Below are positions 15,855-30,482 of a DNA stretch of 64,000 nt, piece after piece. Source of the DNA: a phage; NCBI GenBank assembly GCA_020241125.1, contig GCA_020241125.1_4708.1, one strand, 5' to 3'. The translations under genes were made by a program, and so were the position numbers. Each line of letters begins with the position of its first letter. The stretch's first letter is position 1. The notes under the pieces are model-generated. The model saw only the letters and a list, made by a program, of their open reading frames with translations, did no database searches and was not told the origin of the DNA.

Positions 15855-16748
15855 TTATTCGGAAACGTTATAACCGAATACTGCTTTACCGTAGGTGTGA
15901 GTACCGTCAGCTAACGACAGCACCAACACATGGTTGTATGTAGCGTTAACGCCTTTATCGGTAGACCCGGTGGTAGCACCGTTATAGACAAAGGTAGCTG
16001 TTTGCAGATTGGTTTTCAGTTCATTGATGATATCATCACTTACACCAGTCTGTTCTTTAATCAGGGTGGTCAGGTTACCCGCTAAGCCTGCATCGATCTT
16101 GGTATCGTTACTGGTAATAGCTTGTAAACCTGCGGTGTAAGTACTGAAGTCTAACGGATAGGTTAACAGACGTGCTGAGGTCTTGGTACCATCGCCTTCA
16201 TCAACGTAGGTTAAGTTACCCAGATTGGTAACCTTGATGATGTTAGCCAGATCCAGCGTGGTGTTATAAACTTTAACTTGAACAGAGCCATACCACGCCA
16301 ACGAATCTTCTTTGGCTTCCAGGGTGATCGTCTGGATACCATGCTGGTCGAAGGTAACCGGCGTAGCTAACGTTTCGGCTTTGATGTCTTTCGCTTTATC
16401 CAGGAACTTCTCACCGGAAGGCGTGATCATACCGTAGCGTTGAGCTACAAGGTCAACCACATCACCGATGGTGGTGTTCGCCTCAACGTTAACACGTACA
16501 GCGATCTTCTGGAACCACTTAGCCAGATCCAGACGATGGTAGGTGACATCTCGGTTATTGAAGTAAGGGGTACCTTCACCAGGACTAAGTGTTAAAGTTG
16601 CTTCTGGAGCAGAAGGATTCTTTTCTTTAAGGACGTATTTAAGGTCGGTATATTTAAAGCTGGCACCAGTGTCAGCGTTAAGCTGGTTGATCTCATCAAC
16701 GATAAGTTGCCAAGGTGTTTTTAAAGTAAGCGATACTTGAGCAGTCAT
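15855..16748 (-). CDS. abundant (codon-optimised) protein, member of a six-gene paralog family
   Basis: ORF 15855-17024; ATG 16748 with GAGGAA RBS; strong host-like codon bias; motifs YHRLDLAKWF and LAWYGSV shared with 27809-31428 genes; followed by conserved hairpin 15812-15846. Confidence 0.8.
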   Translation of the reverse strand: MTAQVSLTLKTPWQLIVDEINQLNADTGASFKYTDLKYVLKEKNPSAPEATLTLSPGEGTPYFNNRDVTYHRLDLAKWFQKIAVRVNVEANTTIGDVVDLVAQRYGMITPSGEKFLDKAKDIKAETLATPVTFDQHGIQTITLEAKEDSLAWYGSVQVKVYNTTLDLANIIKVTNLGNLTYVDEGDGTKTSARLLTYPLDFSTYTAGLQAITSNDTKIDAGLAGNLTTLIKEQTGVSDDIINELKTNLQTATFVYNGATTGSTDKGVNATYNHVLVLSLADGTHTYGKAVFGYNVSE

Positions 16749-16887
16749 TTTCTTCCTCGATAGTTGGTACATCACTCTCAAAAGATGTAAGTGTTTACAG
16801 AAATTAATATATTTTATATTAAATGTGAATATTATGGAGAACGACTCCGAATCTCCTTTTCGACCATCAAAATCAGAGGACACGAAC

Positions 16888-17433
16888 ATGTCTACTTTAG
16901 ACTTTAACAAAGCAGCGAAATCCCTTCTGCTTGATCTTATTAACACCAAAGCGACCCGCACATTGGCTGAAGAAGAACTGCAGTTCGGTACTCCGCAGGA
17001 ATCTTCCGAACATGAAAAGAACACCGTTATTCAGCTGGACGCGGCGGCTGAAGCAGCTAACCTGCAGGGTACTCAGCAGTTCTACTACGATCGTCTGGCT
17101 CTGTCTGACGTTTTCGCTGATGTAACTGGTGATGTTACTTTCGAACTGCCGCACGGTACTGACAGCATTCAGGCTTCTGAGCTGGTAAGCAAGCTGGTCA
17201 CCAAATTCGGTCTGGCTTCCCTGAATGGTGAAATCAGAGAAGAAACCTTCCAGCTGTCTGCCGGTACTGTTGGTGAGGTAATTCTGAATGCGATCGAGGG
17301 TGGCCTGGTATACACTGGTACTCTGCGAGTTGCCCTGACCTACGCACTGGCACCAAAAGACGAACTGGCAACCGTTCTGGCGAATAACGTAGCTGAAGGT
17401 TTCGAGAAACCGACCGTTAGCGTTGTTGGCTAA
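16888..17433 (+). CDS. abundant (codon-optimised) protein, paralog-family member
   Basis: ORF 16825-17433; ATG 16888 follows AGAGGA; strong codon bias; QFYYDRLALSDVF motif; divergent from 15855-16748. Confidence 0.75.
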   Translation: MSTLDFNKAAKSLLLDLINTKATRTLAEEELQFGTPQESSEHEKNTVIQLDAAAEAANLQGTQQFYYDRLALSDVFADVTGDVTFELPHGTDSIQASELVSKLVTKFGLASLNGEIREETFQLSAGTVGEVILNAIEGGLVYTGTLRVALTYALAPKDELATVLANNVAEGFEKPTVSVVG

Positions 17434-17727: not shown

Positions 17728-18363
17728 TTACTCAACACTGAACCCGTTCAAGATGATCGCTTCATAACGCTTACGTTCACGACGTTTGCGTGCCTGCCAA
17801 CCGTAGATGAATTTCTCATCTTTCTCACGACGTTCCGCTAATTCGATGTAATAGGTGCTCTGCATGTCCAGCATCGCATCGATGAGATAATCCTTACCGG
17901 TTGCACCACGCTTAGCGATGTAAGCGTCGAGCGCGCTTAACGTCGCAGGTCCCATCAAACCGTCGGCGTTGATATTCTTCCAGTACGTTTGTCGGTTGTT
18001 CATGACGTTCAGATAACGTTGGAGGTTCTTAACCGGGACGGTTTTGCCAGCATTGATACCCAGGTCAAAGAGACGGTCAGCTAAGAACACAGAACGTTTC
18101 ATGACTTCGTCAAGTTTCATCTTATCCCAGAAGTGGGTCTTGTAGATAAAGAACGCCATTTCCGTGGTAAGGTTACGCATGTTACCGTCCCAGCCGAATT
18201 TCGTTTTCAGCGTGGTTTTGTATTGATCGGCGAGTGTTTTCGTAATGCCGTGGTTCGTGATTCCACCCGAGTCATCGGGATCGTCGACGTAACCTGCTTC
18301 GATGCTGGTTTTATCGCGAATGATAAATTCGCACGTGAAATCTTTCTCAGTAATCTTAGCCAT
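17728..18363 (-). CDS. endolysin, GH108-like N-terminal domain plus PG_binding_3-like domain
   Basis: GYVDDPDDSGGITNHGIT matches the GH108 EGGYxxDPxDxGGxTxxGIT core; DGLMGPATLSAL matches the peptidoglycan-binding DGxxGxxTxxAL motif; GAGGAG RBS 6 nt before ATG 18363. Confidence 0.85.
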   Translation of the reverse strand: MAKITEKDFTCEFIIRDKTSIEAGYVDDPDDSGGITNHGITKTLADQYKTTLKTKFGWDGNMRNLTTEMAFFIYKTHFWDKMKLDEVMKRSVFLADRLFDLGINAGKTVPVKNLQRYLNVMNNRQTYWKNINADGLMGPATLSALDAYIAKRGATGKDYLIDAMLDMQSTYYIELAERREKDEKFIYGWQARKRRERKRYEAIILNGFSVE

Positions 18364-18489: not shown

Positions 18490-20538
18490 TTAAATACCCT
18501 TGGTTCCCTTCACGTGATGTGCAATTTCTTCAACCATTGCACGCAGAGCACGAAGTTGTTGGTCATGTTCGTACCAACCACCCAACAGAACCCCGCTATA
18601 CACCATGGTGTCAAGACTTAACAGCCCTTTATCTGATACGTTGATCATTTCCGGGAACTGTTCTTGAACACGCTGTGCGATAACACCGATCTTCTCGACA
18701 TCAGGATCGTAGTTGTGACGGAAACGGGCAAGTCCGGTATACGCCATTTCACGTAAACGATCACTGAAAGATTCCGGATGATCTTTCAGATAACGAATGT
18801 CATGTTTACTACGTTCATCCGAGCGAATGTAAGCGTTAGGAACATCGATATTGCTGTTGAAGTACAGCGCACTACCACCGCCTGCAGAGTTCCCCCAATA
18901 GAAGCGTGTGATCTCACCGCCACCATTCTCCGTGATGATGACATGTTTACCTAAACGCGTACCGCCACTACCATCAACGAAGACCAGTTTGTTTCCGCTG
19001 TAAGAACCCCAGAACAAACGTGTATCGATGATGTGCGTTGCAGCGAGGCGGGCGTTACGTGGTGTAGAATACACGGTGTTAACATCTTGCTGCGCTTGCG
19101 CATCGGAAGCGATACCATAGTTCTGTACGTTACCTAACCCAACCTGCGCTTTCGTAACCGCGTGTGGGTTATCACGACGGTTAGCGTGAGCGTTAACCAG
19201 ATCACCCGCTAATTTCTGAATTGCCCAGTTGGTAGACTGTGGTGTCATGTAACGGTTAGTTGCAGAACCACCTTGCGCTTCAGCTTGGTTAGCGGTTGGA
19301 TAGTTCTCAACGCTTCCCAACCCTACTTGTGCCTTAGACACTTGGTGTGGGTTGTTCTTGTCAGCGATGTGCGCATTAAGCGGAACTAACGCAAAGGTCT
19401 CAATGGACGCTTTGGTTGTGTTCGGTGCCATTAATCGGTTAGCTGCAACACCGGCACGCGCTTCTTCTTCAGAAGCCATCGGATAGTCTTGCACATTCCC
19501 TAACCCAACCTGCGCTTTGGTTACTCTGTGTGGGTTGTTGTAATCGGCTTTATGTGCATTAAGTGGAATCAATGCGAACTGTTCAATCGCTGCAACAGTG
19601 CGTAGCGGCGTCATGAAACGGTTGTTCGCTGTTCCGGCTTTCGCCTCATCATCCGAAGCGGTCGGGAAGTTATCAACGTTCCCAAGGTTAACCTGTGCTT
19701 TGGTGACGCTATGCGGGTTGTCTCGACGGTTAGCGTGAGCGTCGACTAGATCGCCCGCCAGTTTAGCAATCGCCCATCCAACCGTTTGTGCTGTCATGTA
19801 ACGGTCTGGTGCGGTACCGGCTTCTGCCTCCGCCTTGTTGGCAGTAGGATAGTTCTGTACATTACCTAGTCCGACTTGGGCTTTTGTGGTTTCGTGCGGG
19901 TTATCGGTACGGTTAGCATGTGCGTAATGCAGATCGGTCAGATCTTTATCCGCTGCTTGCATGTCTTTGCGTAACTGATCGATTGCCGCCCAGAGACGGT
20001 TATCGGATGCAGCATCACCGATAAGTATTGCGGCTTTCAGTGAATAGATCGCTAAGCAAAGATGTTCGGTACCGTAGATAGCACTAACGTGGTGGATGTG
20101 TGGTTCAGGCGGATAAAGTTCCGGTTTGTTCTTGATGTCGTCCCAGTTGATCGGACGATCGTCAAGTTTGAGTTCTTCGATAGCCTGATATAACGCGTCA
20201 ATAAGACTTACGTAAACACCACCGATGATACGATAGTCGTTAACTAATGTACCCTCGATATCATCGTTGATGATGGCGATGGCTGCACAGATTTCTTTAC
20301 CAGCGTAAAGCGTAGCGTCCTGATACAAGAAGATGGGCTTATAATCCACACCTCGCACCAGTGTCTTACCGGTAAGCTTTTCGGTGATAACCAGACTTTC
20401 GGTGAAGAACGGTCCGCCATCAAGAGCGTAACATTTGTTCTCGGTTCGTGGAACGGTATGCTCTTCACCAACGATGTGGTTGCTATCGAGCGTGCCGGTC
20501 CAGTCCTCGGGGTACTTCAGGGTAATTGGTGTTGACAT
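18490..20538 (-). CDS. tail fibre with C-terminal intramolecular-chaperone (S74-like) domain
   Basis: Five tandem NPHxVTKAQVGLGNVxNY repeats; C-terminus SDERSKHDIRYL ... IGVIAQRVQEQFPEMI resembles the autoproteolytic chaperone domain of phage fibres and endosialidases. Confidence 0.85.
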   Translation of the reverse strand: MSTPITLKYPEDWTGTLDSNHIVGEEHTVPRTENKCYALDGGPFFTESLVITEKLTGKTLVRGVDYKPIFLYQDATLYAGKEICAAIAIINDDIEGTLVNDYRIIGGVYVSLIDALYQAIEELKLDDRPINWDDIKNKPELYPPEPHIHHVSAIYGTEHLCLAIYSLKAAILIGDAASDNRLWAAIDQLRKDMQAADKDLTDLHYAHANRTDNPHETTKAQVGLGNVQNYPTANKAEAEAGTAPDRYMTAQTVGWAIAKLAGDLVDAHANRRDNPHSVTKAQVNLGNVDNFPTASDDEAKAGTANNRFMTPLRTVAAIEQFALIPLNAHKADYNNPHRVTKAQVGLGNVQDYPMASEEEARAGVAANRLMAPNTTKASIETFALVPLNAHIADKNNPHQVSKAQVGLGSVENYPTANQAEAQGGSATNRYMTPQSTNWAIQKLAGDLVNAHANRRDNPHAVTKAQVGLGNVQNYGIASDAQAQQDVNTVYSTPRNARLAATHIIDTRLFWGSYSGNKLVFVDGSGGTRLGKHVIITENGGGEITRFYWGNSAGGGSALYFNSNIDVPNAYIRSDERSKHDIRYLKDHPESFSDRLREMAYTGLARFRHNYDPDVEKIGVIAQRVQEQFPEMINVSDKGLLSLDTMVYSGVLLGGWYEHDQQLRALRAMVEEIAHHVKGTKGI

Positions 20539-20551
20539 AACCTGGAGGTCC

Positions 20552-23149
20552 TTATAACGTGACTGTACCTAATTTGGTTGTCTTATTGAGATTAATGACT
20601 GAGATCTGGGTATCGCTGGTCGTGATGGTGCCGATATTAACGCGCTGTCCTTTATCATCCTCTTGCTTGTGGATGGTTAATTCCAGCTCTAACTGGTTAC
20701 CATTAGGAACAACGGAAACGTACCATGTTTTATTACCTGGTGAGCTATTATAGTCTTTTAGGTTATAATGGCCTTTAGGTAAGGTCATGGCCTTACCAGC
20801 AAACAAACATGAAATATCCTCGTTGATATAAACGTCGAAACCGGAAGAAGCGATGACTGTTGAGGCCATTATTCGAGACGCGACGATACCACGATTATAG
20901 TCGTCGATTGTGGTACCTATGACATTGAATACTTGCCCCCCGTTACCCATAATGGTCGATTCGCTAGTGTTTACGTAGCCGATACCCCAAGTCGGATGAA
21001 TGTTCCAGCGGTACCCACTGTTTTGTAAATATGTATACAAGTCTTCATAGGCCGCATTCACCCAACTACCATCACTTTTTCGTCCAGCCCTAAATTGGAA
21101 TGTATTGCTATTTCCAGATGTTCCTCGGCCAAGAGGGACATGTCCCGCCACTAACCAACCATCTGTACTTTGCATATACGCGAACGAACCGTACGCTCTG
21201 TTATCGGCCCAAATATTCACGGTATCAACACGTTCAACGTAGGCGATCACCTTTTGTACGCCGGTTATAGCGATCGAACCCTTGCGTGCCGACACACTAA
21301 CTTCAGCAATTACGACACCCATTTTCCGCTGGCTGCTGTTAAATCCCAATACAACCATTAAACACGGTGCGTTTGTTGTTTCTGGAGGAATCGTTATCGA
21401 TTGTTTCCAGTCGGTGATTCCGCTGAGTTTTGTTCCAGTATATGCGTTCCAGACGGTTTGTCCAGCCGATTTCAGATTCTGTTCAGAAATAGAAATGGCC
21501 TCGCCCTCAGGGATTAACGTGTCGTAATTGAGACCAATGTTGCTGGATAGACGAAGGTCGTTTAAGTAAGATCCGCTGAGTGTGACGTTACCGTTACGAT
21601 AAATTGTCAAGAATGGCGCAGCCAGGGAGTTTAATACCGTAAAGTTACTCGATGGCATGAAACCATAGACATCGATGCCATTACCGTGGTAATGGTAGTT
21701 TGTCCAACTACCTTGATAACTTACGGTACGTGCATCGTAGTGGCCTTGTCCAAGACCGCTGCTGGATAACGTGTATATCTTGGTTGCTGATAGAAATGCG
21801 AGATATCCATGCGCTGCCAGAGCTCCAACTACCCTGTCTTTTATCTTTAACCAAGCTGAAGTATACAACGTACTGTCGGGATTCATTTTGGCTATTTCAT
21901 CGTAAGCTGTGCCTGCGAAGTTTCCGATAGTGTACGTACGTATATCCGGCTGTCCGTTATTGTCGTTCTGTACAGCAATTACTTGCCCAGAATCATTGAT
22001 ATCGATATTACCGATACAGTTGTGAGCCCCCCACACCCAATATCCATCTTTATAATTGGATTCTCCTTGTGTAAATGTCGACGGTCCTCGCCACGCGATG
22101 CCGTTCGATTCGGCGTAGTAGGTAGCTTGTCCCGATCCTGGATTCATGGCGTATCTGTTATTGGTCGGGTCAAAATCGATGTAAAAATGATGCATTCCTT
22201 GACGTTGACGGTTGTCCCGATCATTTGTCCACCACGACGAACCGACCAGAATTCGCGCCTTACCATTTTTTACAGTGGACCATAAACGTATTGCGGCGCG
22301 CCAGACGATTTGACCGATCCCGTTGGACGGGAAACTATTCGTACTGATGCTGTTGCAGACAACGAGCTCGCTGCTGTTGTTTATTTGAGTCCCTTCAATT
22401 GTAACGCCGTTTATGTTAGTAATCAGTGTTGCCGATACACTACCCCCTGTAGGGGCGATAGAGGAACGTTGAACGGTGTAAATTTTTAGTGATAATTTAT
22501 AGCCGCTCCGAATAGCTATACCAATGTAAATAGTTCCATTAATTTCCCAACAACAAACATCGGGCATTGTTTCTTTGAAATCGGATAAAGCACCGTCGAT
22601 ATACATCGCAACGTGTTTGCTGGCGTCGAATGTGCCGTCCGTTAACGCGATGAACATTTTGGCATTATTACCGTTGATATCAGCCGCTAATCCGAGTAGT
22701 ATGTTGTTCTGATGACAGTAAATGGCTTTAGGCGCTAGATCCAACATAGCTGGTTGGTACTGTCGGCTTGTTGGTATTACGCTAGTAACTGCGCCATTTT
22801 GATCCGTTTTACAAATAACGTAATATACACCGTGTATGATGCTGTTTGTCGCTGACCTCAGTAGGACGATCGTCCCGTCAGATTCACGACATATACCGTA
22901 ATGACGATAGTCGGTGATTAAACCGATAGCGCCATCGGCCGAACCTTCGATTGCCAGAGGAAAATAACTTTGGTCCCCAACCTGTTCGATATCGGTTGCG
23001 CCGATATCGATGTATTTTTCCATCTCAGTGTTGAACTCAGCGGTACTGTAGGCACCGAGATCGCTCGCCTTTAGTCCCGTTGGGTTGTCACGACTGGCGA
23101 TACGTGTAGTAACGCTACTCACCAGTTCGCTGAACTTTTTCATTGCCAT
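20552..23149 (-). CDS. tail fibre or tailspike (865 aa)
   Basis: N-terminus MAMKKFSELVSSVTTRIASRDNP is shared with the two small downstream genes (adaptor-like); long beta-rich, G/N/S/T-rich body; GAGGTG RBS. Confidence 0.7.
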   Translation of the reverse strand: MAMKKFSELVSSVTTRIASRDNPTGLKASDLGAYSTAEFNTEMEKYIDIGATDIEQVGDQSYFPLAIEGSADGAIGLITDYRHYGICRESDGTIVLLRSATNSIIHGVYYVICKTDQNGAVTSVIPTSRQYQPAMLDLAPKAIYCHQNNILLGLAADINGNNAKMFIALTDGTFDASKHVAMYIDGALSDFKETMPDVCCWEINGTIYIGIAIRSGYKLSLKIYTVQRSSIAPTGGSVSATLITNINGVTIEGTQINNSSELVVCNSISTNSFPSNGIGQIVWRAAIRLWSTVKNGKARILVGSSWWTNDRDNRQRQGMHHFYIDFDPTNNRYAMNPGSGQATYYAESNGIAWRGPSTFTQGESNYKDGYWVWGAHNCIGNIDINDSGQVIAVQNDNNGQPDIRTYTIGNFAGTAYDEIAKMNPDSTLYTSAWLKIKDRVVGALAAHGYLAFLSATKIYTLSSSGLGQGHYDARTVSYQGSWTNYHYHGNGIDVYGFMPSSNFTVLNSLAAPFLTIYRNGNVTLSGSYLNDLRLSSNIGLNYDTLIPEGEAISISEQNLKSAGQTVWNAYTGTKLSGITDWKQSITIPPETTNAPCLMVVLGFNSSQRKMGVVIAEVSVSARKGSIAITGVQKVIAYVERVDTVNIWADNRAYGSFAYMQSTDGWLVAGHVPLGRGTSGNSNTFQFRAGRKSDGSWVNAAYEDLYTYLQNSGYRWNIHPTWGIGYVNTSESTIMGNGGQVFNVIGTTIDDYNRGIVASRIMASTVIASSGFDVYINEDISCLFAGKAMTLPKGHYNLKDYNSSPGNKTWYVSVVPNGNQLELELTIHKQEDDKGQRVNIGTITTSDTQISVINLNKTTKLGTVTL

Positions 23150-23161
23150 TATTCACCTCGA

Positions 23162-23647
23162 TTAAATAGGCGAGTCGGGTAGCTGACCATCATCGATCTC
23201 GATGGTGGCCACCTTACGTGTTGCAGCAAGATGTGATGTACCCTGGATTTTGTTCCAGGTGCCGATACGCATGGCGTTTTTGTAGCTGCTATCGCTATCG
23301 TTCAGCGTGTAAACAAAACCGCTATCGGTTACGGCAAGATAGATCCAGCCTACAGACTCACTGATGCCTGACACATCCAAAGTTGCTGCTGGCACCGTCC
23401 CTACCACCGTGTTGTATTCCGCTGTACCTTGACCAATGCTGATCCGGCCGTTGCTGTAAGTGGCTGCCGGAAGCGTTTTATTTCGACTGAAGAAAAGAAA
23501 CGGAAGGTAACGCTGAGTAACAAGCGGTGCAAGTTTAGGAGCCACTTCGGTCTTAACGTAGACATTTGTTTGTGCTGGCGTTACCTCGTGAGGGTTCTTT
23601 TGGGTGAGATACGCTCCCCATTCAGAAAGCAATGTTGATAGCTTCAT
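23162..23647 (-). CDS. small tail-fibre-related protein (161 aa)
   Basis: N-terminal similarity (LSEWGAYLTQKNPHEVTPAQ) to fibre N-termini. Confidence 0.6.
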   Translation of the reverse strand: MKLSTLLSEWGAYLTQKNPHEVTPAQTNVYVKTEVAPKLAPLVTQRYLPFLFFSRNKTLPAATYSNGRISIGQGTAEYNTVVGTVPAATLDVSGISESVGWIYLAVTDSGFVYTLNDSDSSYKNAMRIGTWNKIQGTSHLAATRKVATIEIDDGQLPDSPI

Positions 23648-23651
23648 GCGG

Positions 23652-24167
23652 TTACCCCATGTAACGTTTTTGGCCGAGGATGAAGACTTTGTTGAATACC
23701 ACCGAAGTGATTCCTGTTGCGTTACAGCTCACCTGCCCGACGCGAATTGCTGTTGATGTATCGACCCCAGCACTACTCTGCCAGATCCAATCGATCGATC
23801 CGTCTTTCTGACGAATGAAAAGATAACCGGTTTTGTTCGCCCAGTCGGAAGTAAGTTTTTTGATGTCTAGCGTTCCCTTCGCCAGAATATAGTCGGTACC
23901 GGCGATCATGACGGGTATTTCAGGATACGAGATTACCGTACCGCTGGCAGTAACGTTGCTGATGCGTTCGCTACGAATATCGGTACAGTCACCGAAATAC
24001 GCTACGGGGAGTATCCCCTTAGGGAGCTTTTTGCCGATTCTCGTATCGATCGTGTTTTTATCGGGTGCGTCGATTTGCGCTGCGGTGACTTGGTTAGGGT
24101 TATCCTTCCTTGCGTACCATGTCGTCATGCGAGCACCCAATTCACTCATTTTTGTGCCCATTTTCAC
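23652..24167 (-). CDS. small tail-fibre-related protein (171 aa)
   Basis: N-terminus MSELGARMTTWYARKDNPNQVTAAQ is similar to 23162-23647 and 20552-23149. Confidence 0.6.
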   Translation of the reverse strand: MKMGTKMSELGARMTTWYARKDNPNQVTAAQIDAPDKNTIDTRIGKKLPKGILPVAYFGDCTDIRSERISNVTASGTVISYPEIPVMIAGTDYILAKGTLDIKKLTSDWANKTGYLFIRQKDGSIDWIWQSSAGVDTSTAIRVGQVSCNATGITSVVFNKVFILGQKRYMG

Positions 24168-24174
24168 ATCCTAT

Positions 24175-24212
24175 CGAAAAATAAAAAGAAGGAAAGGTGG
24201 GTAGAACCCACC
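24175..24212 (-). terminator. intrinsic terminator after tail fibre gene 24219-26372
   Basis: Stem GGTGGGT/ACCCACC (24196-24212); the minus strand continues CTTTCCTTCTTTTTATTTTTC. Confidence 0.65.
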
Positions 24213-24218
24213 CATCCG

Positions 24219-26372
24219 TTATAACGTTTCGAAGTCGGTTGCTTTGATAACCGCGTTGAAGTTGGCAAGGAATTCCTTAAGCAGTGCTTGGAAGACATCA
24301 CGAAACGCTGTGTTCGTCTGCAAGCTGGTTAAATAATCGTTCTTAAGGTAATCGCTCAGCTTACCGATCTTCTGCATCTTCTCGCCGTCTTGGTTCTCTC
24401 CAGGTTCTTGGCTGTTGATGTTAACCCATTTGATCCCTTCGAGATCGCCATCGGCAAGGAAGTTGGCGGGTGTCTCATCGTCGTTCAGGATTTTAATCGT
24501 ATCACTGGATTCAATGCCACCGTAAGCTTCCAGAAGCTGGTTGACTGTTAGCTTATTGGTGTTGATTGAACCATTGACACCATCGATACCGATGCCTGCA
24601 CCTGTGATGGATGTCGCCGAAAGATCGATCGGTCCGGTTAACTTACCACCGTTGATCGGTAACGCACCAACTTGCTCAGCGGTGTGTGTATGGTCAGCTA
24701 ACGCCGCAAACGCCACGATAGACTTATATGTCGAATACGGCGTCATATACGCTGATTGGTTGGTGTTGTCAGCCGCTTCAGTATCGGTAGCGACATTAAA
24801 GTTCTGCACGTTGCTGAGACCGACCTGCACCTTCGTTACTTCATGCGGGTTGTTCTTATTGACAACGTGTGCTGCAAAACCATCACCAGCTAAAGCAGTG
24901 ATTGCCGCTTTTGTCGCAGCCGGTGTCATATAGCGGTTGGTTGCTTCACCCGTTTGCGCCTCTTCGTCGGAAGCAACAGGATAGTTCTCAACGCTTCCCA
25001 AACCGACCTGAGATTTTGTTACTTGGTGTGGGTTTTCGGTATTCGCAATATGACTACTGAACCCTTGACCCGCCAGTTGCTCGATTGCGTAACGAACAAG
25101 TATTGGTGTCATGTACTTGTTGTTAACTTGACCATCGATAGCTTCTTGGGTGGTGGCAACCCCGAAGTTTTGCACGCTCCCCAACCCAACTTGCGCTTTC
25201 GTAACAGCGTGGGGGTTATTGGTGTTACCGATGTGATCGGTAACCGTTGGGGTGATTAATCCTGCGATAGCGGCTGCCGTGGTCGCAGGGGTCATGTATT
25301 TATCGTTAGCAACACCCGCAGCAGCTTCTACGTTAGATGCTACACCGTAGTTCAATACATTTCCTAACCCAACCTGCGCCTTGGTTACCCCGTGGGGGTT
25401 GTTCTTGTCTCCGGTATGGGTTGTCAACGTAGCGTTAACGTTATCGATACGCGTGCTTAAGCTATCAGTGATTGCTTTGATTGCGGCTCGTACACCCGCT
25501 GGTGTTGTGTACAGATCTGTGGCCGTACCGGTAATGGTTGTATTACTATCGGCTACACCGTAGTTCTCAACGTTTCCGAGTCCCACCTGGGCTTTCGTTA
25601 CCTTGTGTGGGTTGTTGTAGTTGCTGATGTGCGCAGCAGCACTATCACCACTCAGGTTAGCGATCATCTTACGCGTCATCGCCAACGTCATGTACAGATT
25701 TTCACCGATGGTTTCCAGATCGCTCTCGGTCGCCGTTGTGAAGTTCTGAACATTTCCTAACCCAACTTGAGCCTTGGTTACGCCGTGGGGGTTATCGCGA
25801 CGATTCTCGTGCTGCAGCAATGCAGTCATTGCTTTATTGAACCCTTCTTCAAGCGGTTCTTTCAATGATTCGATTGCAGCCACCACATCGTCCCACGTCA
25901 TTGTGTCGGTTTCGACATTATGTTGGTGGTTGATTGGCGGGAATACGGAAGGAACGTCAGCAACCTTTTCCCAGAACGTAACGCGAGGGTCGTAAAGGTT
26001 GTTGGCTAAAACGTTAAGAATTTGTTGTTGATCAAGTGTAAACTCACCCCCCAGTGAATAGTAGTTCAGTTGCAACTGTCCACTGAATGCGGTGTCCAAC
26101 AGCATGATGGAACCGTATAATTCCAGGCCGGTCAGCGCAGCCATGGCACGGAAGGGGTGAGTGCATAAAAAGTCAACGCCTTCTTCCAGATACGCGTTTG
26201 TTTCAGGGTTGTAGATCTTTAACCCATTGCGAAAATATGGCGCGTATTTAGGAACGAGAAAGTTAAATCCGGTCCCCGTGGAAGGACGGACAGTGACGAG
26301 TTCTTCTGGAACCCATGCGCCATCCAAATTCCCCTGCGGGTTATACGGAAGGCGTTTAATTTCATCTGTCAT
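24219..26372 (-). CDS. tail fibre (717 aa) with NPHxVTKAQVGLGNV repeats
   Basis: At least seven NPHGVTKAQVGLGNVQNF-type repeats; followed by hairpin plus T-run 24175-24212. Confidence 0.85.
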   Translation of the reverse strand: MTDEIKRLPYNPQGNLDGAWVPEELVTVRPSTGTGFNFLVPKYAPYFRNGLKIYNPETNAYLEEGVDFLCTHPFRAMAALTGLELYGSIMLLDTAFSGQLQLNYYSLGGEFTLDQQQILNVLANNLYDPRVTFWEKVADVPSVFPPINHQHNVETDTMTWDDVVAAIESLKEPLEEGFNKAMTALLQHENRRDNPHGVTKAQVGLGNVQNFTTATESDLETIGENLYMTLAMTRKMIANLSGDSAAAHISNYNNPHKVTKAQVGLGNVENYGVADSNTTITGTATDLYTTPAGVRAAIKAITDSLSTRIDNVNATLTTHTGDKNNPHGVTKAQVGLGNVLNYGVASNVEAAAGVANDKYMTPATTAAAIAGLITPTVTDHIGNTNNPHAVTKAQVGLGSVQNFGVATTQEAIDGQVNNKYMTPILVRYAIEQLAGQGFSSHIANTENPHQVTKSQVGLGSVENYPVASDEEAQTGEATNRYMTPAATKAAITALAGDGFAAHVVNKNNPHEVTKVQVGLSNVQNFNVATDTEAADNTNQSAYMTPYSTYKSIVAFAALADHTHTAEQVGALPINGGKLTGPIDLSATSITGAGIGIDGVNGSINTNKLTVNQLLEAYGGIESSDTIKILNDDETPANFLADGDLEGIKWVNINSQEPGENQDGEKMQKIGKLSDYLKNDYLTSLQTNTAFRDVFQALLKEFLANFNAVIKATDFETL

Positions 26373-27808: not shown

Positions 27809-28714
27809 TTATGCTACATATAACGTCAGATAACCGTCGATGAGCGTATTCATCACACTGAGTTGAAGTACGACAGCTTTACTACCATCTGTACGTACAC
27901 CGAACGGTAGTGTTTTGAATTGCTCTGGATCGGCTATTACTTGCGCATTCTGCAAGTTGAGCGGTCCAGGCATTGCTGACAATACCCAGCGATCGTTGAC
28001 CATAAGGCCGTCGATCTCTTCAGAGAGACCCAATTGCAGTGCGTTCATTTCTGCGATTAGTGCCTCCGATTGCGTATCGCCTGAGGTTAGCGTATACCCA
28101 TCGGTAAGCGATGCCAGAACACCAGCAGATACGAACCAGTTGTACGAAACAATAGCGCCTGGGAGTTTACTGCTATCTCGATCGATGATATAATTCAACC
28201 CAGCCAACATATTGTTGCGAACGAGGTTGTTGAGGTCATTATGTCCTGAGGTTAACTCAACAAGTAACTGACCAACCCATACTTGGTTACCGGGTTTAGG
28301 TGTTATCATAACCTGTATCGGTGACTTGGACTTATCCAGATCCGCGTCGACAATCTCGGTTTTGTTGAGAAGGATACCGTACGTCGATGCTAAGACAGGT
28401 AGGATCTCAGAGACCTTGGTTAATGCATCTAAGGTTTCGATCTCGATGGGCCAGCGGTGCTGTCCGCCAGACCAGGTACCCAGTTTACCAAGATCGATGC
28501 GGTTATAATAGATGTCGACAGAGTTCACCAACCCTGAACCCGGTTGGGGATGCACGGTTAACTTGCTGTTACGCTTGTACCATGTGCTTTCAGAAGCCTC
28601 ACCGATAACCAGTTTATCCAGCGTTACGCCTCGAGCATCGAAATCGCTATGCTTTCGAATCAGCAGAAAGAGGATTTCTTTCGATTCTAACCCCAGGATT
28701 TCACTGTACTCCAT
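27809..28714 (-). CDS. paralog-family protein (301 aa), putative tail or baseplate-associated
   Basis: AAGGGG RBS; motifs YYNRIDLGKL and DRWVL shared with 30493-31428. Confidence 0.7.
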   Translation of the reverse strand: MEYSEILGLESKEILFLLIRKHSDFDARGVTLDKLVIGEASESTWYKRNSKLTVHPQPGSGLVNSVDIYYNRIDLGKLGTWSGGQHRWPIEIETLDALTKVSEILPVLASTYGILLNKTEIVDADLDKSKSPIQVMITPKPGNQVWVGQLLVELTSGHNDLNNLVRNNMLAGLNYIIDRDSSKLPGAIVSYNWFVSAGVLASLTDGYTLTSGDTQSEALIAEMNALQLGLSEEIDGLMVNDRWVLSAMPGPLNLQNAQVIADPEQFKTLPFGVRTDGSKAVVLQLSVMNTLIDGYLTLYVA

Positions 28715-28729
28715 TTAACACCCCTTAGG

Positions 28730-29614
28730 TTACGGTAGGATTTCTGCGCCCGTCGGGCCTGCCTTACGAGCTTCCAACGCACCAAGGTCGTATTTCAACG
28801 TCAGCGTATCGTTGGTGGTAAATAGGTTGTGATAAGTCGAAATCAGATCGGTAACCTGTGCGCCTACGATTTCGTTCATGTCGAAGGCAGAACCTTGACC
28901 ATCATCAGCACGAACGATTTTGTCGCCAGCAGAGACCATCCCAATTTCAGAAATAACCGCGTACTCTTCACCACCTTCGGTGAGTTTAGCCACATTGAGG
29001 TATTCGCTGATATCCCACGGCGTCCAGACCAAAGAGACTTTACAGCTATAATCGTAGTACTCTCCGGTTGCCACCAGAATTCCTGTTGTTGGAATATCCG
29101 GTCGGGGTGGGTTGAGGTTCTTGTCGGTTGGATGCCATTCAATAGTCTGAGCAACACCATCGATGTACTTGGTATATCGCGTGGAGCGGACAACGTTATC
29201 GAAATCGATGCGACGGCCGTAATAACAGATGTACTTTTTACCGTTTTCCAGTGTCTCAATACGACGTAACCCAAATCTAGCACGTTCGTCCGTGGTTAAA
29301 TCGTTACCAACTTCACGCATCACGAAAGGTTTGATTTTCCATGGTGAAAGATCGCTTGCTTCGTGAGCGATCGGCATCGAGGAAGGGATGCCGTTAGCGT
29401 TGCGGATGAATTCGTGACCTTGGTTGCCGATACAGAAGTAACGTACAGCAGGATTACCCTCGGGGTAAACCTTTGATTGAATCTGAAGCTTTTCGTTCAA
29501 GGTGCTGTGTTCTTCCCATGCGTGAGGAAGACCGAGCGTAAGGTTAGTTTGTACTTGACCGCCGATAATCGTACGGACGATACGATCGGTAGCACGGATT
29601 TGTGTAGAAGCCAT
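28730..29614 (-). CDS. hypothetical protein (294 aa), possible paralog-family member
   Basis: AGGAAA RBS; YYGRRIDFDNV resembles the family YxDRI motif. Confidence 0.65.
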   Translation of the reverse strand: MASTQIRATDRIVRTIIGGQVQTNLTLGLPHAWEEHSTLNEKLQIQSKVYPEGNPAVRYFCIGNQGHEFIRNANGIPSSMPIAHEASDLSPWKIKPFVMREVGNDLTTDERARFGLRRIETLENGKKYICYYGRRIDFDNVVRSTRYTKYIDGVAQTIEWHPTDKNLNPPRPDIPTTGILVATGEYYDYSCKVSLVWTPWDISEYLNVAKLTEGGEEYAVISEIGMVSAGDKIVRADDGQGSAFDMNEIVGAQVTDLISTYHNLFTTNDTLTLKYDLGALEARKAGPTGAEILP

Positions 29615-29630: not shown

Positions 29631-30482
29631 TCAGTTATATTGCATCAACAGGATACCGCCGTAGTTCGTGCAGTAATCTTGGCTAAGCGTAACGATAACA
29701 GCGTTAGCGAACGCAGGGTTAACAGGATAACCCTGTGCGATAAGTTCTGTTGTTTTACCGGTTGCAAGCACGGTGGCTCCGTAAAGGTTGTTTTCGTCTT
29801 CACGGCCGTTATAAACCCATGGGGTTGGCGCAACGTTGTTGAATAAGCTAACCAATGCGCTTAAGTTACCACCAACTTTTAACCCGGCGAGATCGGAACG
29901 GATAGCTGTACAGTCTATAGCGTAACTGTAGACCAATGCCTGGATACGATTTGCGGTGTAGTACGGGAAATTGAGACCGGTCATCACCGAAGTCTTCATC
30001 ATCCCCGCAATATCGTGGGCACTATCGAGGAGATAGAACGTAACACTTCCCGTCCAAGCCAATCCGGTTGTTTTCAATTCTACGGTGTGAGGGAACGGAT
30101 ACTCATCACCTCGTACGATCGGAGAATCGACGCAGCTATCCTGATCGATAACGATTCCGTACGTTGATTGAATCAGAGGGATAAGATCGTGCGTTGTTTT
30201 AACCCCAGCATCGATAGCAAGCTTCGGTTCCATTCCCAAGAAGAAGTCTTGGATAGGGATACGATCGTACCACACGTAGCTGCTTTCGCGGTATTGTGCT
30301 GGTGTTACTGTTGCCGAAGGGGATACCTTAGCGCGAGTGTTTCGGCTATACGCGTGGTTTCCGTTTTCAGCAACATCCGTGATATCAATTGCATCGAAGT
30401 TAAAGTCGAAGTCAGGATTGGCTGCCTGAATAAGTTCAGCGACCAGTACTTTAGGACTTTTGTTTAACAATTTCTGACTCAT
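29631..30482 (-). CDS. paralog-family protein (283 aa)
   Basis: AAGGA RBS; motifs VWYDRIPIQDFF and LAWTGSV. Confidence 0.7.
   Translation of the reverse strand: MSQKLLNKSPKVLVAELIQAANPDFDFNFDAIDITDVAENGNHAYSRNTRAKVSPSATVTPAQYRESSYVWYDRIPIQDFFLGMEPKLAIDAGVKTTHDLIPLIQSTYGIVIDQDSCVDSPIVRGDEYPFPHTVELKTTGLAWTGSVTFYLLDSAHDIAGMMKTSVMTGLNFPYYTANRIQALVYSYAIDCTAIRSDLAGLKVGGNLSALVSLFNNVAPTPWVYNGREDENNLYGATVLATGKTTELIAQGYPVNPAFANAVIVTLSQDYCTNYGGILLMQYN

Follow-up and report, generated by a model that had tools for sequence, protein, structure and literature searches.

The window, a 64,000-nucleotide stretch of phage DNA, derives from a chimallivirus (Chimalliviridae) closely related to Escherichia phage Goslar, which it matches with 94% identity over 82% of the query and with identical gene order. 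All five predicted ORFs were found at their coordinates. They are co-oriented on the minus strand, as are all features described below, and follow each other in the order F2, s171, s161, S865 and F1, after which comes the endolysin gene; the gaps between the five genes are, in the same order, 57, 4, 12 and 13 nt. A GC hairpin with a T-rich tail, resembling a terminator, is located in the gap that separates F2 from s171 (24195..24213) and might conceivably act as an attenuator, and the total number of terminator-like hairpin sites was not higher than in shuffled sequences. When the 315 six-frame ORFs of the window were screened with HMMs of the fibre repeat, s171 and s161, these profiles connected just the five genes, and no other ORF gave a match below E=0.1. 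The region constitutes the host-adsorption operon of a nucleus-forming E. coli jumbo phage, a chimallivirus of the Goslar type. The tail-fibre or adsorption module of the original prediction was borne out, as were the two repeat fibres, the intramolecular chaperone and the N-terminal segment shared by the three remaining proteins.

F1 (18490..20538) is a fibre protein of 682 aa orthologous to Goslar gp025, and F2 (24219..26372, 717 aa, phrog_2163/13857) is the orthologue of Goslar gp029, to which it is 99.9% identical. A gp131-like N-domain, five NPH repeats, a distal tip and a Peptidase_S74 domain make up F1; in F2 the gp131-like anchor domain at the N-terminus is followed by six NPH repeats of 61 aa and by a C-terminal tip of its own. 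Clean copies of the motif H-x5-NPHxVTKAQVGLGNVxNY number five in F1 (NPH at aa 213, 274, 335, 396 and 457) and six in F2 (NPH at aa 194, 254, 325, 386, 447 and 508), where they form a shaft of approximately aa 172-568 (24669..25859). The spacing is mostly 61 aa, and degenerate HxH-type motifs occur on both sides of the clean repeats of both proteins, so that the predicted 5-7 tandem repeats were a fair description. The repeats are visible in the protein alone: Tandem Repeats Finder detected none in the DNA. In blastp comparisons F1 aligned from residue 1 with phiKZ gp135 (E=1e-30), gp134 (E=3e-23) and gp133 (E=1e-20), and F2 with gp135 (E=1.6e-15) and gp133 (E=3e-15). The NPH repeats matched those of phiKZ gp131 (E=3e-23) and also gp132 (E=2e-11). 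Judged by these sequence matches, the two fibres are paralogues and belong with gp131/133/134/135 of phiKZ, with which they have the gp131-like N-domain and the NPH repeats in common. The fibres of phiKZ are built with the N-domains of the gp131/133/134/135 paralogues (PMC13250141), several paralogues with similar N-termini being present in one fibre; the gp131-like N-terminal domain anchors the peripheral fibres at the outer baseplate, gp131 ends in a beta-propeller, and gp132 is a small paralogue with a single repeat.

The C-terminus of F1 (aa 573-682 plus the stop codon, 18490..18822) had been predicted to resemble an intramolecular chaperone, and both the Pfam domain search and the presence of the dyad described below confirmed this. 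Residues 573-631 matched Peptidase_S74 (PF13884) with 26.6 bits (E=7.7e-6), above the gathering cut-off of 22 bits. The domain starts with S573-D-E-R-S-K578, a sequence that preserves an intact Ser-x4-Lys dyad and aligns with SDRRIK of S16 gp37 (6f45). S573 and K578 are, we presume from what is known of endoNF and T5 pb1, the catalytic residues. F1 is predicted to cleave itself before S573, which would leave a mature fibre of aa 1-572 (18823..20538) comprising the N-domain, the repeats and the distal tip. In the A-to-DL part of the Goslar peptide table all five searched peptides preceding S573 were present, and neither of the two searched peptides following it (AMVEEIAHHVK and DHPESLSER) was listed. 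Endosialidase endoNF, T5 pb1 and S16 gp37 likewise carry the S74 domain at the C-terminus of a fibre, with the S-x4-K dyad found in F1, and compared with them the F1 domain shows nothing unusual. Relatives have other tips, or a separate chaperone gene, in place of the S74 domain; in the relative L012 an F1-like fibre is accompanied by a separate Phage_tail_APC chaperone gene. The repeats of F1 and F2 and the S74 chaperone are ordinary elements of already known kinds.

Three further genes lie between the fibres. For s171 (23652..24161, orthologue of Goslar gp028) the ATG at 24161 is the most probable start, so that the protein has 169 aa, like every one of its homologues, and not 171. It is composed of a helix (aa 4-20), an invariant RRDNPNxVTAxQ loop, a second helix (aa 35-45) and a beta-sandwich (aa 53-165). 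s161 (23162..23647, 161 aa), in which aa 18-20 form an NPH motif, is the orthologue of Goslar gp027 and has further orthologues in L002, L004 and L012. S865 (865 aa), the orthologue of Goslar gp026, begins with a segment of helix, NPT motif and helix (aa 1-80, 22910..23149) that is 85-100% conserved with Goslar. In hhalign, s161 and s171 were full-length paralogues (E=2e-10 over aa 2-131). When the N-termini only were compared profile to profile, S865 matched s171 with E=1.3e-12 over 57 columns and s171 matched s161 with E=6.7e-10, while S865 and s161 compared directly gave E=0.017; in all direct comparisons of these two the similarity was weak (E=0.017-0.069). Among the ORFs of the window the s171 HMM picked out S865 (E=7e-17) and nothing unrelated. 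The N-terminal segment that the original prediction had seen in all three proteins is therefore real, but 'N-terminal adaptor' described only half of what they share: the C-terminal domain of s171 also matched the final ~90 residues of S865 (hhalign, E=1.9e-7), and both proteins matched the C-terminus of phrog_3573. Thus, s171, s161 and S865 are paralogues that share a helix-NPx-helix at the N-terminus and, at the C-terminus, a beta-sandwich of about 90 residues; s161 and s171 lack a body, and in S865 approximately 690 residues separate the two shared elements. The NPH repeat itself matched s171 (E=5.9e-8), and the N-terminal segment common to the trio corresponds to half of a fibre repeat in degenerate form.

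In the model of the s171 monomer an N-terminal helix leads into a beta-sandwich with the 'shoulder' topology of the receptor-binding proteins of lactococcal phages and of TssK, the fold matches having 6-15% sequence identity. s161 and s171 had no match in Pfam, NCBIfam or among annotated PHROGs. The shoulder is a trimeric module docking receptor-binding proteins or TssK on the baseplate, and the shoulder-fold proteins p2 RBP and TssK are homotrimers (PMC6300606). The trio has no sequence-level relation to the p2 and 1358 RBP shoulders, SPP1 gp22 or the N-terminal domain of TssK, and differs from them in comprising three paralogues, in belonging to a jumbo myovirus and in including two proteins, s161 and s171, that consist of essentially the module alone. 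In S865, unlike in the siphophage RBPs, the body interrupts the module instead of following it behind a neck. That the two ends of S865 fold together as one shoulder is suggested by their homology to s171. In the available text of the phiKZ atlas no mention of a shoulder-type beta-sandwich like that of S865, s161 and s171 was found. The trio with its split docking module is undescribed.

The body of S865 (approximately aa 81-765, 20855..22909) was predicted as a beta-propeller followed by a beta-rich region, in a model of moderate quality (pLDDT 70) in which the N-terminus and the C-terminal domain were poorly predicted. A right-handed parallel beta-helix, the fold of a depolymerase that structure prediction might have revealed, was absent; S865 is neither a fibre nor a beta-helix spike. 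No sequence similarity was detectable between S865 and phiKZ gp131-135 themselves, but its N-terminal half repeat did match the small paralogue gp132 (E=6e-4). Unlike gp131, S865 is a propeller protein without the gp131-like anchor domain and starts with a single half repeat. In Erwinia phage RAY anchor, repeats and an S865-like body are fused in a single chain. S865 is a member of phrog_3573 (E=9e-74), a family with 289 cluster representatives and 91 phage records, and its whole chain matched the fold of phrog_3573/phrog_7449 proteins with TM 0.6-0.65. These virion proteins of jumbo phages (for example of Serratia phage BF, Pectobacterium CBB, Erwinia PhiEaH1, GAP32, 121Q) range in architecture from free-standing chains of ~880-990 aa to fusions of 1100-1850 aa behind a fibre anchor, and none of the members has an assigned function.

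The body is also the part of S865 that varies. Protein identity to Goslar started at 100/85/85% in the N-terminus, fell to 45-65% in the central part and returned to 82-100% at the C-terminal end; with another relative, L002, it was 20-47% in the centre, and the C-terminal conserved domain (approximately aa 766-865, 20552..20854), the homologue of the s171 beta-sandwich, was 100% identical. At the nucleotide level identity to Goslar dropped to 52-67% only from ~20800 to ~22900, between flanks of 94-100%. This pattern marks the insert as a recombination cassette, the sole part of S865 that is hypervariable among close relatives. The receptor reported for Goslar is the LPS outer core, assigned to LPS 'GluII', and it is probably the fast-evolving, sugar-binding-type body of S865 that sets the host range. 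Whatever the assembly of the trio, the body could instead be an enzyme, a glycoside hydrolase or another activity modifying polysaccharide or LPS. We regard this as possible but rather doubtful: the top two fold matches were fucose lectins, identity to all fold matches was 5-12%, S865 had neither a Pfam or PDB sequence match nor an Asp-box motif, and the hypervariability of the centre is easier to reconcile with binding surfaces than with an active site under conservation.

How the three paralogues are arranged in the virion is suggested by published proteomics of Goslar, in which the LFQ median copy estimates were 14.3 (gp028), 13.8 (gp027) and 12.8 (gp026), compared with 87 (gp025) and 75 (gp029) for the fibres. 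The trio is thus equimolar and ~6-fold rarer than the fibres. When the table is sorted by abundance, its members fall on ranks r, r+1 and r+3, a coincidence with a chance probability of ~18/N^2 (<0.003 for N of at least 87). This equimolarity favours a fixed 1:1:1 docking complex over interchangeable adaptors, and the proposed interchangeable attachment to a common virion site fits the copy numbers, including the rarity relative to the fibres, less well than a complex of fixed stoichiometry does. s171 is 99% identical in Goslar despite the differing body of S865, and this constancy fits contacts confined to the conserved ends of S865. A small paralogue lies directly upstream of an S865-like gene also in the diverged phages L004, L012, PCH45, L010 and L011; PCH45-like phages have a single one, hence a strict 1:1:1 unit is not universal.

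From these observations we put forward an operon in which gp131-type fibres are combined with a docking trio of fixed stoichiometry, S865 targets glycans and exchange of the cassette retargets the phage, a reading to which we give about even chances. In this scheme s171, s161 and S865 would assemble into one docking unit attached at the peripheral baseplate or at the base of a fibre, most likely as a pseudo-threefold heterotrimeric shoulder of 1:1:1 composition, with S865 as the only 'armed' chain; its propeller body would bind, and possibly cleave, a host surface glycan, and a recombinational swap of the central cassette would redirect the phage with the assembly contacts undisturbed. The full structural version, a pseudo-threefold receptor-binding unit whose shoulder is formed by the gp026, gp027 and gp028 orthologues, with a propeller inserted in the shoulder of one chain and a host range changed by swapping a single cassette while assembly contacts stay constant, is a tentative proposal that we hold to be less probable than its general outline. 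To our knowledge, such a shoulder-inserted heterotrimeric architecture has not been described for any receptor-binding protein of a phage.

Alternatively, S865, s161 and s171 could be independent homo-oligomers that all attach to one virion site through their N-terminal segments, which would act as exchangeable adaptors and provide the phage with different tips and several receptor specificities. The shared segment is real, p2 RBP and TssK provide homotrimeric precedents, and the upper MS estimate, 20-22 copies, lies near the 18 copies expected if each protein formed six homotrimers. We nevertheless consider this unlikely. s161 and s171 have little beyond the docking module and could hardly serve as alternative receptor-binding tips, competition for one site does not predict near-exact equimolarity, and the three N-termini are only ~25-30% identical to one another but strongly conserved within each set of orthologues, which suggests distinct, non-interchangeable contacts. 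Somewhat less likely still, s161 and s171 might be assembly chaperones or adaptors of S865, like tail-fibre assembly proteins or gp38-type adhesins staying on the finished fibre. They are indeed small, syntenic, tightly linked to the S865 gene and present in virions, and the Phage_tail_APC gene of L012 shows a chaperone encoded separately. However, they matched no chaperone family in Pfam, NCBIfam or PHROG, their genes lie upstream and not downstream of S865 as expected of Tfa or Phage_tail_APC, and they are paralogues of the S865 ends with an RBP-shoulder rather than a chaperone fold. That s161 and s171, resembling S865 minus its body, are decaying, functionless remnants of duplicated S865-like genes is very improbable considering their intact ORFs, their conservation (31-96% identity across several phage lineages and at least 22 clusters; some motifs are invariant, and RRDNPNxVTAxQ is almost so in 19 aligned s171-family sequences) and the peptide coverage of 36-61% with which gp027 and gp028 were detected in virions of Goslar.

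Returning to the operon with a fixed docking trio, the multiple receptor specificities foreseen in the original prediction are plausible for F1, F2 and S865, because the distal parts of these proteins differ and vary between lineages; s161 and s171, having no receptor-binding body, add none. Tail fibres and the peripheral baseplate were not resolved in Goslar cryo-EM, gp26-28 are not discussed in the Goslar preprint, and in recent cryo-EM work on phiKZ and Goslar the fibres and the peripheral baseplate could be neither fully resolved nor assigned. For this density the operon offers a parts list of two gp131-type fibres and a shoulder-fold trio present in equal copies. Nucleus-forming jumbo phages are attractive in that they evade many host defences. 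A single 2-kb cassette of S865 is likely to be the host-range determinant of Goslar-like phages, and would be useful for engineering phages of this kind.

A megablast search with the tail-fibre module (18490-26372) matched Escherichia phage vB_EcoM_Goslar (Chimalliviridae, 237 kb), with 82% query cover and 94% identity; the counterpart region lies at near-identical genome coordinates and its gene order is unchanged. The original prediction had described a module with three fibres and common N-terminal adaptor segments. This observation was confirmed, and its interpretation proved right in part. The five open reading frames were found on the minus strand with exactly the coordinates that had been assigned to them. 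They encode the repeat fibre F2 (24219-26372, 717 aa; orthologue of Goslar gp029), the small proteins s171 (23652-24161/24167; gp028) and s161 (23162-23647; gp027), the long protein S865 (20552-23149; gp026) and a second repeat fibre, F1 (18490-20538, 682 aa; gp025). The gaps between the genes are 57, 4, 12 and 13 nt, thus the five genes form one tight operon. The last gene of the fibre operon (17728-18363, minus strand) encodes an endolysin with GH108 and PG_binding_3 domains. Its Goslar orthologue, gp024, was present in purified virions in approximately 51/76/120 copies (low/median/high), an abundance similar to that of the fibres, and the endolysin may be a virion-associated lysin. Between 18200 and 18400, covering the 5' end of the endolysin gene and the F1-endolysin intergenic region, nucleotide identity to Goslar dips to 82% amid flanks of 94-100%.

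The gap that separates the F2 stop from the s171 start contains a terminator-like hairpin followed by a T-rich tail (24195-24213, minus strand). Expression of S865, s161 and s171 (the trio) might be attenuated there, but F1, which is encoded farther downstream, is abundant. Terminator-like sites were not enriched over shuffled sequences. A sigma-70 promoter scan gave matches below those of shuffles, and such a scan is not applicable to a phage that has its own RNA polymerases. The module is flanked by several DUF7941 genes (15855-17433, 27809-28714 and 29631-30482), with a DUF7208 gene (28730-29614) among them; the DUF7941 family has been proposed to form the 'fibre cloud' of the baseplate (bioRxiv 10.64898/2026.04.21.720040). 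Near-complete Goslar-like genomes and proteins also occur in Salmonella enterica isolate assemblies (the 236-kb contig L002 in GCA_014829495.1; proteins P0018, P0021 and P0177), which suggests that Salmonella is either infected by Goslar-like phages or harbours them persistently, or else that the isolates were contaminated with them.

A repeat centred on H-x5-NPHxVTKAQVGLGNVxNY...YMTP occurs five times in F1 and six times in F2, with a period of mostly 61 aa. This NPH repeat was seen at the protein level only, the module being free of tandem repeats in its DNA. It lies outside all Pfam and NCBIfam models and resembles no solved structure in sequence; matches to PHROG families of tail and tail-fibre proteins were numerous. 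Matches of F2 to ribosomal protein L18e in the PDB search were chance pairings with the repeat. In local BLAST searches F1 and F2 were homologous from residue 1 to phiKZ gp133, gp134 and gp135 (E down to 1e-30), and the repeats of phiKZ gp131 also matched them (E=3e-23). Because these phiKZ proteins build peripheral fibres, F1 and F2 belong to the peripheral-fibre family of chimalliviruses and are unremarkable examples of it. In the 2026 phiKZ atlas (PMC13250141), the N-terminal domains of the phiKZ paralogues attach twelve peripheral fibres, each a hetero-hexamer, and a propeller of seven blades forms the end of gp131. phiKZ gp132 (1811-2143 of the phiKZ locus), 110 aa long, consists of one NPH repeat and lacks the anchor domain. 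It may be a functional counterpart of the small Goslar-type proteins; the passages of the atlas consulted here (PMC13250141) do not locate it in the structure.

The chaperone domain predicted at the C-terminus of F1 was borne out by a Pfam Peptidase_S74 match at residues 573-631 (26.6 bits, gathering score 22). Residues 504-675 aligned with the C-terminus of the distal fibre protein of Salmonella phage S16 (6f45, E=0.005). The S74 domain starts with S573-D-E-R-S-K578, the S16 counterpart being SDRRIK. Judging by endoNF and T5 pb1, we take S573 and K578 to be the Ser-x4-Lys self-cleavage dyad. In the Goslar virion peptide table, for peptides beginning with A to approximately DL, all five gp025 peptides searched before residue 573 were present and neither of the two searchable ones after it was (AMVEEIAHHVK, DHPESLSER), thin evidence that is consistent with release of the S74 domain. 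The F1 tip is exchangeable between lineages. In the related locus L004 (6014-7948) the F1 orthologue has 644 aa and an unrelated C-terminus with no S74 match. In L012 (5436-7926) an F1 orthologue of 627 aa is followed by a separate gene for a 197-aa Phage_tail_APC-type chaperone, and the F2 orthologue has Big_1/Invasin_D3 matches.

The N-terminal similarity claimed for the trio proved to be real when family profiles of the first ~60 residues were compared: S865 matched s171 with E=1.3e-12 (57 columns) and s171 matched s161 with E=6.7e-10, the direct comparison of S865 and s161 being weak (E=0.017). The fibre repeat profile also matched the N-termini of s171 (E=5.9e-8) and s161 (7.7e-5), and BLAST paired residues 6-67 of S865 with the first repeat of F2. 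The N-terminal segment of the trio is thus related to the fibres' own repeat. When all 315 six-frame ORFs of the window were screened with the profiles, the five module genes were linked to one another and to nothing else. The similarity extends further: s161 and s171 are homologous over almost their whole length (E=2e-10), and the C-terminal domain of s171 (80-164) matches S865 777-862 (E=1.9e-7), so S865 looks like a small protein with ~690 residues inserted between the N-terminal segment and the C-terminal domain. Independent support for the s171-S865 link came from a match of s171 to C-terminal positions 888-971 of phrog_3573, the family to which S865 belongs (E=9e-74). A weak Lyase_8 match in s161 was rejected, because it was below threshold (19.7 bits, cut-off 27) and the s171-like fold does not support it.

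The inserted part is the variable part. Protein identity to Goslar is 97-99.9% for the flanking proteins and 65% for S865; in 40-residue bins it is 100/85/85% at the N-terminus of S865, 45-65% in the centre and 82/97/100% at the C-terminus. Nucleotide identity is 52-67% within ~20800-22900 and 94-100% outside. Relative to the Goslar-like contig from the Salmonella assembly, the centre is 20-47% and the last ~80 residues 100% identical. The centre of S865 is therefore a recombination cassette, whose edges are the two elements common to the trio. Such a pattern is expected if the ends of S865 are engaged in conserved contacts during assembly and the centre is the part that encounters the host. 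s171 is 99% identical in Goslar although the S865 body differs.

S865 itself had no Pfam or NCBIfam match (the NCBIfam search was negative for all five module proteins), no meaningful PDB match in single-sequence and profile searches, no Asp-box motifs and no sequence link to the phiKZ gp131 propeller. phrog_3573 has 289 representatives at 50% clustering. The family occurs in 91 phage records, of chimalliviruses and of Rak2-like jumbo phages, and every annotation there reads hypothetical, structural or 'membrane' protein. Many free-standing representatives begin with the helix-NPH motif, and members of 1100-1850 aa carry an F1/F2-type anchor in front. A viral contig scan with the S865 alignment returned Goslar-like loci only. 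In every fetched diverged relative that has an s171-type gene, this gene directly precedes the S865-type gene. The complete trio is present in the Goslar-related lineages L004 and L012; Serratia phage PCH45 and two contigs that resemble it each have a single small paralogue. In Erwinia phage RAY the small proteins are absent, and a chain of ~1150 aa combines the fibre anchor, the repeats and an S865-like body.

A model of s171 was built from 22 s171-family proteins of 31-96% identity. It consists (pLDDT 82) of a helix (4-20), a loop with the nearly invariant motif RRDNPNxVTAxQ, a second helix (35-45) and a beta-sandwich (53-165). The fold matches were the phage 1358 receptor-binding protein (RBP; score 8.2), the cyanophage A-1(L) tail fibre (7.0), the HFTV1 tail fibre gp42 (6.4), SPP1 gp22 (5.7) and TssK (5.6 to 6n38_A, a construct of shoulder and neck only). 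The element common to these matches is the 'shoulder', the docking fold of phage RBPs and TssK. As a trimer, the TssK shoulder uses TssG loops to dock on the T6SS baseplate, which has been likened to the attachment of RBPs to the p2 and TP901-1 baseplates (PMC6300606). Given this docking role, the idea of a common attachment module was right in spirit. The module is not the N-terminal segment alone, however; by the model it is a split shoulder, made of N-terminal helices and the C-terminal sandwich, and s161 and s171 are little more than that.

Copy numbers have been estimated by label-free proteomics of purified Goslar virions (Table S4 in bioRxiv 10.64898/2026.04.21.720040); they are published values for orthologues 65-99.9% identical to the window proteins. 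The estimates (low/median/high) were 58/87/136 for gp025, 50/75/118 for gp029, 9.5/14.3/22.4 for gp028, 9.2/13.8/21.6 for gp027 and 8.5/12.8/20.1 for gp026. The trio is thus equimolar, at about one sixth of the fibres (bioRxiv 10.64898/2026.04.21.720040). In the abundance-sorted table its members occupy ranks r, r+1 and r+3; by our own arithmetic, the chance of this for three given proteins among N of at least 87 is ~18/N^2, i.e. <0.003. The preprint does not discuss gp26-28, and fibres and peripheral baseplate were not resolved in it (bioRxiv 10.64898/2026.04.21.720040).

Taken jointly, trio paralogy, the shoulder-like fold of s171, the S865 propeller, the cassette pattern and conserved synteny make a picture in which we have high confidence. 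The three chains may assemble into a single docking unit at a fixed 1:1:1 ratio. Its simplest form would be a heterotrimeric shoulder with pseudo-threefold symmetry in which one chain bears the propeller, and its place on the virion would be the peripheral baseplate or the fibre base. That the trio is a heterotrimer is a tentative proposal, somewhat less probable than its contrary. The strongest alternative, which the high mass-spectrometric estimate (~18 copies each) would allow, is that each protein forms a homotrimer of its own and that the three occupy equivalent sites. The propeller body of S865 would bind a surface glycan; genome-wide screens have assigned the Goslar receptor to the LPS outer core, GluII (bioRxiv 10.64898/2026.04.02.716166). 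s161 and s171 may instead be retained chaperones, and the S865 propeller may be an enzyme.

The F1 and F2 fibres and the S74 domain are of already known kinds. What is new in the trio is a predicted shoulder docking module that a cassette-like propeller body, inserted into it, divides in two, and body-less paralogues that accompany S865 in equal copy number. The trio provides candidates for the unresolved density in chimallivirus baseplates and, in the S865 cassette, a putative host-range determinant that can be tested.
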